Shown one piece after another: positions 4,027 to 62,584 of a DNA stretch of 64,000 nucleotides (within the stretch, counting starts at the first letter, position 1; every line of letters starts with the position of its first letter). Source of the DNA: Escherichia coli (GTDB taxonomy: Bacteria; Pseudomonadota; Gammaproteobacteria; Enterobacterales; Enterobacteriaceae); the NCBI RefSeq assembly GCF_045037415.1, contig NZ_CP173438.1; one strand, 5' to 3'. Under the pieces are notes generated by a model, which was not told the origin of the DNA, searched no databases, and saw nothing but the letters and a program-made list of their open reading frames with translations. The position numbers were made by a program, and so were the translations under genes.

Positions 4027-5649
<1,623 letters not shown>

Positions 5650-5671
5650 CTACCGCCAGATGTTACAGGGT

Positions 5672-6595
5672 TTATTCACTCATCGCATCGCGCCAGATCT
5701 TGTCAACGATACGTTGCGCCAGCACGGCCTGTTCGCCGGCTGTTTGCGGAACTGTCTGATTTTGCACGCATTCAATGAAGTGCCGCGCACAGTCGACAAA
5801 TCCACGTTGCTCAAGCGTACTCTGCCAACCAGGAATCGGTTTATGCACTACGCCCTGCCCGCGCTCCTCACGCCATTCGCGCATATCCGTAATGTCGATC
5901 AGCGCACCATCAGTCACGGCCTGCACGGTTTCACGCTGACTTCCGGCCCGGCGATGCATACAGGTGGTGATCTGCAAAGGACCAGCCGAAAAATGGTGCT
6001 CGGCAAACAGCATTTCGCCGGACTCATTGGTCAGCAACGTACCGCTTTCGAGAGTTGCATTGCCGCCAGACAACCACAGCGCGGTATCAACCACATGCAA
6101 ATAATCATCCAGCAATGTGAAATAAAGATCGTGTGGCCCGACGCTATTGGTACGATGTTTATCCATTCTTAGCGAGGACGCGGTGGCGAGTTGCGTTTTT
6201 AACTCACCGTAGAGTGGTGCGAAACGACGGTTAAAACCGACCATCAACGTCAGTTTTTTCCGCGCCGCCAGTTCCACCAGCCGTTCAGCATCGCGCAGAT
6301 TTTCTGCCAGCGGTTTATCGACACAGACATGTACCCCCGCATTGAGTAACGTACTGACCACGCCAAAGTGGCTGGCGGTGCTGGAATGCACAAAAACCGC
6401 ATCGCAACTGGCGGCAAGGCTGGATAACGAATCAGCATAAGGAATGCGCCAGCTGTCACAAATTGGCAGGGCTTTGGCGCGCGTAGGCGACCAGGCACCT
6501 TGTAACGTCCAGTCAGACGCTGCCGCCAGCACCGGTAACCACGCTTTTTGCGCGATGCCGCCTAACCCCACTACGCCGATACGTAATTTTTTCAC
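5672..6595 (-). CDS. mviM: Predicted NAD(P)-binding oxidoreductase MviM/YceM (307 aa), GTG start
   Basis: Protein (V)KKLRIGVVGLGGIAQKAWLPVLAAASDWTLQGAW... has a Gfo/Idh/MocA-type Rossmann motif; GTG at 6595 gives the expected 307 aa and abuts the yceH stop (6597). Confidence 0.85.
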   Translation of the reverse strand: MKKLRIGVVGLGGIAQKAWLPVLAAASDWTLQGAWSPTRAKALPICDSWRIPYADSLSSLAASCDAVFVHSSTASHFGVVSTLLNAGVHVCVDKPLAENLRDAERLVELAARKKLTLMVGFNRRFAPLYGELKTQLATASSLRMDKHRTNSVGPHDLYFTLLDDYLHVVDTALWLSGGNATLESGTLLTNESGEMLFAEHHFSAGPLQITTCMHRRAGSQRETVQAVTDGALIDITDMREWREERGQGVVHKPIPGWQSTLEQRGFVDCARHFIECVQNQTVPQTAGEQAVLAQRIVDKIWRDAMSE

Positions 6596-60030: not shown

Positions 60031-61359
60031 ATGGCAATGTTCGGTTTTCCTCACTGGCAGTTAAAATCGACCTCTACAGAGAGCGGCGTGGTCGCGCCGG
60101 ACGAACGATTGCCGTTTGCTCAAACGGCAGTAATGGGCGTTCAACACGCGGTGGCGATGTTTGGCGCGACGGTGTTAATGCCGATTCTGATGGGGCTGGA
60201 TCCCAATCTTTCCATTTTAATGTCGGGGATCGGCACGTTACTGTTTTTCTTTATTACCGGCGGGCGCGTGCCCAGTTATCTCGGTTCCAGCGCGGCTTTT
60301 GTCGGCGTGGTGATTGCCGCGACGGGCTTTAATGGTCAGGGAATTAATCCGAACATCAGCATCGCGCTGGGCGGGATTATCGCCTGTGGGCTGGTTTATA
60401 CCGTCATTGGCCTGGTGGTGATGAAAATCGGTACGCGCTGGATTGAACGACTAATGCCGCCGGTTGTGACGGGTGCGGTAGTGATGGCGATTGGCCTGAA
60501 CTTAGCGCCTATCGCAGTGAAAAATGTATCGGCTTCGGCCTTTGATAGCTGGATGGCGGTAATGACGGTGCTGTGTATTGGGCTGGTGGCCGTATTTACC
60601 CGTGGCATGATCCAGCGATTATTGATTCTCGTAGGATTAATTGTCGCCTGTCTGCTGTATGGCGTGATGACCAACGTTTTAGGGCTGGGAAAAGCCGTCG
60701 ATTTTACTCTCGTCAGCCATGCTGCCTGGTTCGGTCTGCCACATTTTTCCACTCCTGCTTTTAATGGTCAGGCAATGATGCTGATTGCGCCCGTGGCGGT
60801 GATTCTGGTGGCGGAAAACTTAGGTCATCTCAAGGCGGTCGCCGGGATGACCGGACGCAATATGGACCCGTATATGGGGCGGGCATTCGTAGGCGATGGG
60901 CTGGCGACGATGCTTTCTGGCTCTGTCGGCGGTAGCGGCATAACCACCTACGCCGAGAATATCGGTGTGATGGCCGTGACAAAAGTCTACTCGACGCTGG
61001 TGTTTGTTGCCGCTGCCGTCATCGCCATGCTGTTGGGCTTTTCGCCGAAATTTGGCGCGCTGATCCATACTATTCCGGCTGCGGTGATTGGTGGTGCATC
61101 AATTGTTGTGTTCGGGCTGATTGCCGTCGCAGGCGCACGGATCTGGGTACAAAACAGTGTGGATTTAAGCCAGAACGGTAATTTGATTATGGTCGCAGTA
61201 ACCTTAGTGCTGGGTGCGGGTGATTTTGCTCTCACACTGGGCGGTTTTACGTTGGGAGGGATCGGTACAGCCACCTTTGGCGCGATTTTACTCAATGCGT
61301 TGTTAAGCAGAAGGTTGGTTGACGTTCCACCGCCAGAAGTTGTTCATCAGAAGCCATAA
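60031..61359 (+). CDS. rutG: Pyrimidine permease RutG (NCS2 family), 442 aa
   Basis: Protein MAMFGFPHWQLKSTSTESGVVAPDERLPFAQTAVMGVQHAVAMFGATVLMP... ; ATG at 60031. Confidence 0.93.
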   Translation: MAMFGFPHWQLKSTSTESGVVAPDERLPFAQTAVMGVQHAVAMFGATVLMPILMGLDPNLSILMSGIGTLLFFFITGGRVPSYLGSSAAFVGVVIAATGFNGQGINPNISIALGGIIACGLVYTVIGLVVMKIGTRWIERLMPPVVTGAVVMAIGLNLAPIAVKNVSASAFDSWMAVMTVLCIGLVAVFTRGMIQRLLILVGLIVACLLYGVMTNVLGLGKAVDFTLVSHAAWFGLPHFSTPAFNGQAMMLIAPVAVILVAENLGHLKAVAGMTGRNMDPYMGRAFVGDGLATMLSGSVGGSGITTYAENIGVMAVTKVYSTLVFVAAAVIAMLLGFSPKFGALIHTIPAAVIGGASIVVFGLIAVAGARIWVQNSVDLSQNGNLIMVAVTLVLGAGDFALTLGGFTLGGIGTATFGAILLNALLSRRLVDVPPPEVVHQKP

Positions 61360-61376
61360 ACAGAAAACCGCCGGGG

Positions 61377-61409
61377 CTACCGGCGGTGATGGCGTTTTGA
61401 CGAGCTACA
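61377..61409 (+). terminator. Candidate rho-independent terminator after rutG
   Basis: Hairpin accgccgg-ggctac-ccggcggt, followed a few bases later by a short T-run. Confidence 0.5.
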
Positions 61410-61441
61410 GACAAAAATGCATGCGTCATTGATTAGCCCGG

Positions 61442-61615
61442 CTAGTTGTCGCTTTTACCGTGACTGCTCTTGCCACCTTTTTTACCTGCTTCAGATGCGC
61501 GCTGCGGGTCATTTTTGAAATTACCTCCGCTGTGCTGTCCACCTTTTTTACCTGCTTCTGATGCTCTTTCGCGGTCTTCTGCAAAATTGCCGGAACCGCC
61601 TCGATGGTTTGCCAT
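61442..61615 (-). CDS. ymdF: KGG-repeat stress-induced protein YmdF (57 aa)
   Basis: Protein MANHRGGSGNFAEDRERASEAGKKGGQHSGGNFKNDPQRASEAGKKGGKSSHGKSDN with two RASEAGKKGG repeats; ATG at 61615. Confidence 0.9.
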   Translation of the reverse strand: MANHRGGSGNFAEDRERASEAGKKGGQHSGGNFKNDPQRASEAGKKGGKSSHGKSDN

Positions 61616-61969
61616 TACTGACCTCCGTCTGGGTATAGACATCATATTGCATAGAATTAACGCGGCGTATGGCGGCTGCCATATTTTCGCTACGTGGAAC
61701 TAAGCTTAGTGAACTGACGCGGGCAGATCCGCGTTTGGTAATATCCTGCAACAGCTTCTTAGCGAGAATAGATATCATCTCCAATAATTATCCATAAGCC
61801 GCTCTTATGATTAAAAAAACGCGATGAGATAAAAATGTGTCATTTTGCGACAAAATTACGTGCTTGTGAAAGTTGTTATAAATCAAATAAGTGGTTGTGA
61901 AATTTGCACTCTGAAAAGGACGTCTTATCTTTAAATAAGTGGTAGCGAATCGCTACGGAATAGAGATAA

Positions 61970-62584
<615 letters not shown>

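Follow-up and report, generated by a model that had tools for sequence, protein, structure and literature searches.

At positions 61442 to 61615 of the window (the whole 64,000-nucleotide stretch of Escherichia coli DNA analyzed here), the minus strand carries ymdF, a chromosomal gene that has already been annotated and published and whose short product contains two KGG repeats. The genes rutD, rutE, rutF, and rutG lie upstream, with wrbA, yccJ, and agp on the other side, and the rutG-ymdF-wrbA-yccJ-agp synteny matches that of strain SK1144 exactly; the RefSeq ymdF coding sequence of SK1144 corresponds to 61442 to 61615 base for base, with DNA that is 100% identical. The original prediction, made from the sequence alone, had proposed the name ymdF and an intact frame of 57 codons, with no strand stated. 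RefSeq coordinates, the protein accession (WP_001273658.1), and the rutG and wrbA neighbors bear out the name, and the minus-strand translation, MANHRGGSGNFAEDRERASEAGKKGGQHSGGNFKNDPQRASEAGKKGGKSSHGKSDN followed by the stop, bears out the frame, which contains no frameshift or internal stop and retains its Pfam match. The protein and the chromosomal neighborhood likewise agree in placing the gene in the ymdF orthologous group (E. coli b4518 type). RefSeq product names at this locus are “general stress protein” and, in newer annotations, “con-10 family general stress protein.” When 691 nt spanning the ymdF open reading frame (ORF) served as the query, many complete E. coli genomes proved 100% identical, and 5417 of 5426 complete genomes have the locus; K-12-type genomes leave the protein WP_001273658.1 unchanged and differ by four synonymous substitutions in the DNA. 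The gene and its nearest signals are as follows.

61442 to 61615, minus strand: coding sequence of ymdF, with 57 codons and, at 61442 to 61444, the stop codon TAG; translation intact.
61622 to 61626, minus strand: Shine-Dalgarno sequence GGAGG, 6 nt before the annotated ATG, as read from the sequence.
61358 to 61387, minus strand: intrinsic terminator of ymdF, made up of a G+C-rich hairpin of 8 bp followed by UUUUCUGUUU, from a terminator scan.

Because GGAGGT does not vary among the 49 orthologous upstream regions that make up alignment A1, the 57-codon start is favored over the in-frame ATG at 61645. That upstream start (ATG ATG, 30 nt upstream, at 61616 to 61645 on the minus strand) would give a 67-codon ORF with the added residues MMSIPRRRSV; it was rejected as having no Shine-Dalgarno sequence, and it is further ruled out by leaders in which its frame is closed by TGA (Citrobacter and Salmonella) or in which it is out of frame (Enterobacter type). 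The terminator lies 55 nt past the stop codon, is shared with the end of rutG in a back-to-back arrangement, and has a hairpin that is present in both the minimum-energy and the centroid RNA structures.

Existing annotation and publications already cover the gene, its KGG repeats, and its family, and the finding of the repeat by itself changes nothing. What the present analysis adds is a reading of that repeat as a 22-codon unit of ancient duplication, with no general concerted evolution and with a perfect 10-residue repeat that is lineage specific, together with a side observation, a synonymously constrained block in the first unit.

To locate repeats, we applied a custom diagonal scan to the coding sequence, with 2000 mononucleotide shuffles and 2000 codon shuffles as nulls. 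A single direct repeat stands out: nt 52 to 77 and nt 118 to 143 of the coding sequence are identical at 25 of 26 positions, at an offset of 66 nt or 22 codons, and the score of this match (23) is reached by none of the 4000 shuffles (maxima of 13 for mononucleotide and 14 for codon shuffles). The two sequences, GCATCAGAAGCAGGTAAAAAAGGTGG and GCATCTGAAGCAGGTAAAAAAGGTGG, are placed as follows.

61539 to 61564, minus strand: 26-nt core copy 1, encoding ASEAGKKGG, codons 18 to 26.
61473 to 61498, minus strand: 26-nt core copy 2, encoding ASEAGKKGG, codons 40 to 48.

The scan thus recovers the internal duplication that a self-dot-plot was expected to reveal, with two amendments to how it was first described. 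The claim had been of two near-identical RASEAGKKGG segments encoded by near-identical DNA: the peptides (residues 17 to 26 and 39 to 48 of YmdF) are in fact identical, but the arginine codons differ (AGA versus CGC), so that the near-identical DNA spans ASEAGKKGG and not all 10 codons. The duplication itself is real, but its unit is 22 codons long rather than 10, and its DNA identity is high only within the 26-nt core. A direct-repeat search (seed 6) over 61300 to 61750 returned no direct families, and Tandem Repeats Finder returned nothing over the same interval.

With the 66-nt offset as its period of 22 codons, the repeat divides nearly all of the protein into two units and a tail.

61535 to 61600, minus strand: KGG unit 1, codons 6 to 27, GGSGNFAEDRERASEAGKKGGQ.
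61469 to 61534, minus strand: KGG unit 2, codons 28 to 49, HSGGNFKNDPQRASEAGKKGGK.
61445 to 61468, minus strand: C-terminal tail SSHGKSDN, which tells YmdF from YciG and varies among orthologs.

Each unit consists of a Gly-rich linker (GGSGNF or SGGNF) and then a charged segment of the form ..RASEAGKKGG with weak helical propensity, and both end in KKGG plus one residue (Q27 and K49); K24, G25, G26, K46, G47, and G48 are invariant in an alignment of 25 sequences. Between the two units of ymdF, 14 of 22 residues and 44 of 66 nt are identical, and outside the core the nucleotide figure is 17 of 36.

The age of the duplication can be judged from the paralog yciG, for which we used a sequence from an E. 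coli genome where trpA is its neighbor and yciF and yciE lie downstream of it. The alignment with yciG, which had been put forward as a check, gives 44 identities over 48 residues and diverges past residue 48. Unit 1 of ymdF matches unit 1 of yciG at 19 of 22 residues, and unit 2 matches unit 2 at 21 of 22 residues (55 of 66 nt). Units in the same position are therefore closer to each other across the two genes than sister units are within ymdF, and the internal duplication thus predates the split of ymdF from yciG. We accordingly read the two units as an ancient tandem duplication of a 66-bp unit older than that split, and the similarity of the core DNA does not point to a recent duplication.

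Relatives were gathered by scanning a single genome of each species with a degenerate DNA pattern that stands for GNFKNDPQRA, which yielded 120 loci. In about 25 enterobacterial genera, genes of the ymdF and yciG types contain two copies of the 22-residue unit; relatives elsewhere have two to six units, with ORFs of three to six units in Pseudomonas, Alcanivorax, Erwinia persicina, alphaproteobacteria, and genomes of candidate phyla. In six of these multi-unit ORFs, adjacent units are identical at 54 to 62 of 66 nt, which points to recent amplification in those lineages, unlike the situation in E. coli; the number of KGG units is evolutionarily dynamic outside the enterics. Five of the six, taken as ORFs of four to six units, share with YmdF the tandem 22-residue pattern (..SGGNFKNDPxRAxEAGxKGG..), but they hold more units, often with that high nucleotide identity, whereas ymdF holds two old, diverged ones. 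Bacillus subtilis GsiB and Neurospora con-10 are presumably multi-unit KGG proteins built on the same 22-residue unit.

Assignment of the protein to the KGG family, which the original prediction had drawn from general knowledge, is upheld by Pfam PF10685 (E = 1.6e-18; 67 bits against a cutoff of 20.4), which matches YmdF in two stretches, the better being residues 32 to 52 in unit 2; with the gathering score exceeded and tandem units of about 22 residues ending in K-G-G, YmdF belongs to PF10685, the con-10 family. A search of NCBIfam with the protein gave no family, and a sequence search of the PDB gave no match even at E ≤ 10. The 57-residue protein has a grand average of hydropathy (GRAVY) of −1.71, 21.1% Gly, 11 Lys plus Arg against 7 Asp plus Glu, an isoelectric point (pI) of 9.9, and three hydrophobic residues. 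Hydrophilins are said to have been defined by Garay-Arroyo et al. in 2000 as proteins with more than 6% Gly and a mean hydrophilicity index above 1.0, and YmdF lies above both values (21.1% Gly and an index of 1.71, the latter taken from the Kyte-Doolittle GRAVY). An AlphaFold2 model built on the 25-sequence alignment is of low confidence (mean predicted local distance difference test score of 59.8, predicted template modeling score of 0.27, no residue at 90 or above) and contains only two weak helices, residues 15 to 24 and 37 to 46, one per unit over the RASEAGKK core. Such a low-confidence model, which is no measurement, and the lack of a PDB relative are consistent with predicted disorder of YmdF.

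The Pfam description of the KGG family, in the form quoted by PMC9262955, includes a Walker-A-like pattern, GxxxxGK[ST], that follows the KGG motif, and only YciG has been said to carry it (PMC9262955). The regular expression [GA]xxxxGK[ST] in fact matches YmdF twice (AGKKGGKS at residue 43 and GKSSHGKS at residue 48, together residues 43 to 55, encoded at 61442 to 61489 on the minus strand) and YciG once, which contradicts that statement. The matches in YmdF are probably due to chance in a G/K/S-rich sequence, because a disordered, G/K/S-rich chain of 57 residues cannot form a P-loop fold.

Several known systems resemble YmdF, to different degrees, as follows.

(i) YciG of E. coli and Salmonella, encoded in the yciGFE operon, is a KGG paralog. 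Its two units match those of YmdF position by position over the 44 identities noted above, its composition is much the same (GRAVY of −1.67, 24% Gly, pI of 9.9), RefSeq gives it the name “con-10 family general stress protein,” and it is sigma-S dependent (PMC5437024, PMC7161692). It differs in its tail (QQSGGNKSGKS), in its locus (adjacent to trpA, with yciF and yciE in the same orientation), and in having D20 and R23 in unit 1, so that its internal DNA repeat is weaker (18 of 26 nt). By blastn with ymdF, E. coli genomes contain a median of two matching places and at most 5, and the two that were identified are ymdF and yciG.

(ii) The third Salmonella paralog, STM14_1829 (SEN1538), has 60 residues with two KGG repeats and is RpoS regulated, and strains that lack it are less resistant to antimicrobial peptides and to heat (PMC7161692); at pH 4.5, it is redundant with YmdF and YciG (bioRxiv 10.64898/2026.04.09.717482). 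Its N terminus and tail differ from those of YmdF, and no separate locus for it was seen in most E. coli genomes.

(iii) PA2146 of Pseudomonas aeruginosa and YmdF1 to YmdF3 of Klebsiella pneumoniae are small KGG proteins with strong induction in biofilms (PMC9262955). A PA2146 deletion regains its biofilm architecture and tobramycin tolerance when given ymdF, and PA2146 in turn rescues an E. coli ymdF deletion (PMC9262955). PA2146 belongs to another genus and is regulated differently, having been placed downstream of SagS, and it is likened to YmdF here by description only.

(iv) Hydrophilins and late embryogenesis abundant (LEA)-like proteins share with YmdF their short repeated units and stress induction, and YciG has been placed among them explicitly (PMC5437024). 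Hydrophilins are a physicochemical class rather than a family of homologs, and YmdF joins it by composition.

Published work supplies the biology. The genes ymdF, yciG, and Salmonella STM14_1829 are among the small sigma-S-dependent genes whose products have been detected by mass spectrometry (PMC5437024, including its Table 1), their transcripts are lower in an rpoS mutant by quantitative reverse transcription-PCR (PMC7161692), and RpoS regulation of the family is also reported in bioRxiv 10.64898/2026.04.09.717482; the main text of the sigma-S promoter paper of Maciag et al. (2011) does not mention ymdF, and the wrbA-ymdF region is among the listed targets of CsgD. All three proteins are called intrinsically disordered in PMC7161692 and in bioRxiv 10.64898/2026.04.09.717482, as these two texts relate it from Oguri et al. 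2019. When ymdF is deleted in E. coli, the biofilm is a patchy monolayer, its cells are about 10-fold fewer, and sensitivity to peroxide is about 100-fold greater (PMC9262955). In Salmonella Typhimurium at pH 4.5, single deletions are silent and the yciG ymdF double and triple mutants grow slightly worse (bioRxiv 10.64898/2026.04.09.717482). In S. Paratyphi A, a bacterial two-hybrid (BACTH) screen found YciG in contact with the cyclic di-GMP phosphodiesterase YhjH.

From this work on YmdF and its relatives, a course of action can be proposed. RNA polymerase with sigma-S would transcribe ymdF in stationary phase, in acid, and in biofilms, and the product would accumulate as an intrinsically disordered hydrophilin, each KGG unit serving as one low-affinity module on a flexible Gly-rich chain and perhaps becoming helical upon binding or dehydration. 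Weak multivalent binding of this kind would shield or modulate partner macromolecules, more units meaning higher avidity, and is by analogy the most likely mode of action of YmdF; its loss would then lead to less biofilm and to lower tolerance of peroxide, antibiotics, and acid, with paralogs partly redundant. Taken jointly, the best explanation, in which we place high confidence, is that the locus is ymdF, a gene of two ancient KGG units plus a tail whose product would be a disordered sigma-S stress hydrophilin acting by multivalent shielding.

A number of points weigh against this explanation or parts of it. Phenotypes vary by strain, with a motility effect in one Salmonella background and not in another (PMC7161692). 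The molecular mechanism of KGG proteins is unproven, and no binding partner of YmdF is known; the helix in each unit is only a hint, because the AlphaFold model that contains it is of low confidence. At the DNA level, the cores are somewhat more alike than the peptide and codon usage would lead one to expect, so that a short conversion in Escherichia, though unlikely, is conceivable. Finally, unit 1 is constrained at the nucleotide level, so that the protein leaves part of the conservation of the repeat unexplained.

The last of these points gives rise to the alternative that fares best, namely, that codons 16 to 21 of unit 1 also act at the level of RNA, as an Hfq-binding (A-R-N)n tract, as a site for a small RNA (sRNA) or a protein, or as one strand of a helix with AUGCAAUAUGAUGU, in which case the DNA similarity of the units would be partly a by-product of the RNA element. 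The two features concerned are as follows.

61553 to 61570, minus strand: constrained codons 16 to 21, GAA AGA GCA TCA GAA GCA, with synonymous-site constraint in 52 orthologs from about 25 genera.
61636 to 61652, minus strand: conserved upstream motif ATGCAATATGATGTCTA, extended (AT), columns 42 to 58 of alignment A1, conserved across genera and 10 to 35 nt upstream of the Shine-Dalgarno sequence.

That the synonymous constraint itself is real is clear from the orthologs. Normalized synonymous entropy is 0.18 over codons 16 to 21 against a gene mean of 0.58, and a 6-codon window so low arises in only 4 of 20000 column permutations. The choice of codons is nearly fixed, with the rare AGA at R17 in 50 of 52 orthologs, GCA at A18 in 49 of 52 and at A21 in 48 of 52, and TCA at S19 in 46 of 51, while the homologous codons of unit 2 are near saturation, the commonest codon occurring in at most 28 of the 52. 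Mean pairwise synonymous-codon difference is 0.15 at codons 16 to 22, as against 0.46 to 0.54 in other windows of the coding sequence past the first four codons and 0.50 at the same codons of 24 yciG-type genes, so that yciG, unlike ymdF, is free of the constraint. All six constrained codons end in A, and if the reading is shifted by one base to start at the last A of codon 16 (AAG AGC AUC AGA AGC AGG), five of the six triplets fit A-R-N.

The case for a helix turns on the upstream motif, which probably lies within the 5′ untranslated region (5′ UTR) of ymdF; a long 5′ UTR has been reported for Salmonella ymdF (PMC5437024). In this motif (AUGCAAUAUGAUGUCUA), variation is concentrated in the three bases between ATGCA and TGATG, and the motif is complementary to the block in UGAUGU/GCAUCA and UGC/GCA. 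Enterobacter-type leaders have an additional UUUCAC that is complementary to GUGAAA of codons 15 to 17, and R15 is then always CGU; in one lineage, GCAUCA has become GCGUCG with all pairs kept through G-U pairing. Against such a helix, there is no compensatory covariation (both sides being nearly invariant), RNAalifold does not predict it, the z-score of the duplex energy has a mean of −0.94 and a value of −0.09 in E. coli, which is no better than shuffles, and base-pair probabilities from the partition function give the block no consistent partner. The evidence for long-range pairing of motif and block is weak.

Searches for a known element in this role gave little. An Rfam scan (E ≤ 1, 60800 to 62300) found no match, and ymdF is missing from the interaction tables of the searched supplements on Hfq cross-linking and ligation followed by sequencing of the hybrids (Hfq-CLASH) and of a 2025 supplement set on RNA interaction by ligation and sequencing (RIL-seq), appearing in two others only in expression and annotation tables. 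Two further candidates were tried and rejected. The best site for the sRNA RydC, whose sequence was confirmed by Rfam RF00505, is the Shine-Dalgarno and UTR region rather than the block and falls only within the top 1.2% of the window background. An overlapping ORF was likewise rejected as the cause of the constraint: in genes of the Enterobacter type a frame-3 ORF runs into a stop at GGT AAT, the candidate GTG start of a +1 ORF is GCG in E. coli, and no overlapping ORF is conserved.

Overall, we regard a second, nucleotide-level code in unit 1 that serves as a post-transcriptional control site, whether of the Hfq type, as an sRNA or protein target, or as a helix strand, as a tentative and rather improbable proposal. 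Were it true, the block would mark an uncharacterized control site that lies within the coding sequence of a stress mRNA of the sigma-S regulon, and its identity as a regulatory RNA site would offer a handle on post-transcriptional control of an abundant and mechanistically obscure family of stress proteins.

A short hairpin upstream of the conserved motif (61668 to 61683, minus strand) differs by lineage: it is TATGGCagccGCCATA in E. coli, and the corresponding hairpin of relatives is TGAGGtatcactCCTCA in Citrobacter and Salmonella and GTGAAAGAatccTCTTTTAC in the Enterobacter type. Because of a deletion of about 20 nt there in E. coli, its hairpin does not stand at the homologous position of the alignment.

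The close likeness of the two cores raises a different alternative, namely, that in the Escherichia lineage the units have recently exchanged sequence by intragenic gene conversion, over and above selection on the peptide. When synonymous codons were drawn from the codon usage of the window with the peptide held fixed, identity of at least 25 of 26 nt arose in 0.4% of trials (P = 0.004), which makes something beyond peptide identity plausible; at least 7 of 10 identical codons arose in 3.3%. In most genera, unit 1 reads RASEAGRKGG, with CGT or CGA at R23, and core identity is 15 to 23 of 26 nt. Lysine at position 23 occurs only in Escherichia, where its codon is AAA as in unit 2, and in Citrobacter amalonaticus, where it is AAG in both units, and core identity in these is 23 to 25 of 26 nt; since other genera have R in unit 1, the perfect 10-residue repeat is a state of Escherichia and C. 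amalonaticus. Core copy 2 of other Escherichia genomes has two more synonymous differences (GGA and GGG/GGC; 23 to 24 of 26 nt), and where E. albertii and divergent E. coli have GGA and GGG/GGC in unit 2, this genome and K-12 have GGT at each of the two sites, a change that in both cases goes towards the codons of unit 1.

These signs of conversion are offset by several others. The chance that both synonymous changes would go towards the sister unit is about 1/9, and two orthologs without the K substitution have 7 of 9 identical codons, so that the 7 of 10 in E. coli is no outlier. Among 52 nonidentical ymdF orthologs, the fraction of identical codons between units is 0.437 within genomes and 0.443 in shuffled pairings of genomes, which shows no family-wide excess and on which concerted evolution between units across the family was rejected. 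With only 17 of 36 nt identical outside the core, any conversion tract could be at most about 26 nt long. We therefore consider recent conversion unlikely, and less probable than a role at the RNA level. The simpler reading combines an ancient duplication, strong purifying selection that acts on the peptide, and a handful of coincidences particular to single lineages; the near-identity over 26 nt would then be the residue of purifying selection on ASEAGKKGG, aided by some coincidences of codon in the lineage or, in Escherichia, by a conversion tract of very short length.

The weakest alternative, that low-complexity DNA has left this frame open by chance and that the repeat is without coding meaning, could appeal to the +1 frame of the same strand, which is also open (a 52-residue ORF at 61426 to 61584) and shows that open frames are cheap in such a composition, but it is practically untenable and already refuted by the comparative data, given that the Shine-Dalgarno sequence and start context are invariant in 49 orthologs, that amino acids are conserved while synonymous sites vary across about 25 genera, that the Pfam match is far over threshold, that the protein has been seen by mass spectrometry in Salmonella, and that the openness of the other frame is a by-product of the codon content of YmdF, in which a T at codon position 2 is almost absent.

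Further observations concern the surroundings of ymdF and its relatives. On the minus strand of the wrbA-ymdF intergenic region, two conserved elements lie about 180 to 240 nt upstream of the ATG: TTGTCGCAAAATGACACATTTTT (61831 to 61853) and the palindrome CATAAGAGCGGCTTATG (61793 to 61809), the arms of which change together in Kluyvera, from ATAAG/CTTAT to ATAAT/ATTAT. The sole match to a consensus promoter, a weak sigma-70-like TTCACA-17-CAAAAT (61870 to 61842, minus strand), overlaps the TTGTCGCAAAATGACACATTTTT element. The elements at 61793 to 61853 could be a promoter of ymdF, an operator, the 5′ hairpin of a long leader, or regulatory sites of wrbA.

Both units of E. coli ymdF contain a run of six A at their KK codons. 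In C. amalonaticus JARDVN010000001.1, two further KGG paralogs go out of frame at a stretch of A that is seven long (GGTAAAAAAAGG) instead of the six found in others, which could reflect a homopolymer sequencing error or slippage-type pseudogenization.

In E. coli AVS0155, a river isolate, the region matches in two pieces (NZ_CP124420.1, 163206 to 164673) with an IS1 family transposase annotated inside, and this split match is an IS1 insertion in the ymdF/wrbA neighborhood. Just past agp, beyond about 63958 of the window, RefSeq annotates a partial “hypothetical protein” pseudogene that has lost its N terminus (positions 5593 to 5691 of the SK1144 locus, L001).

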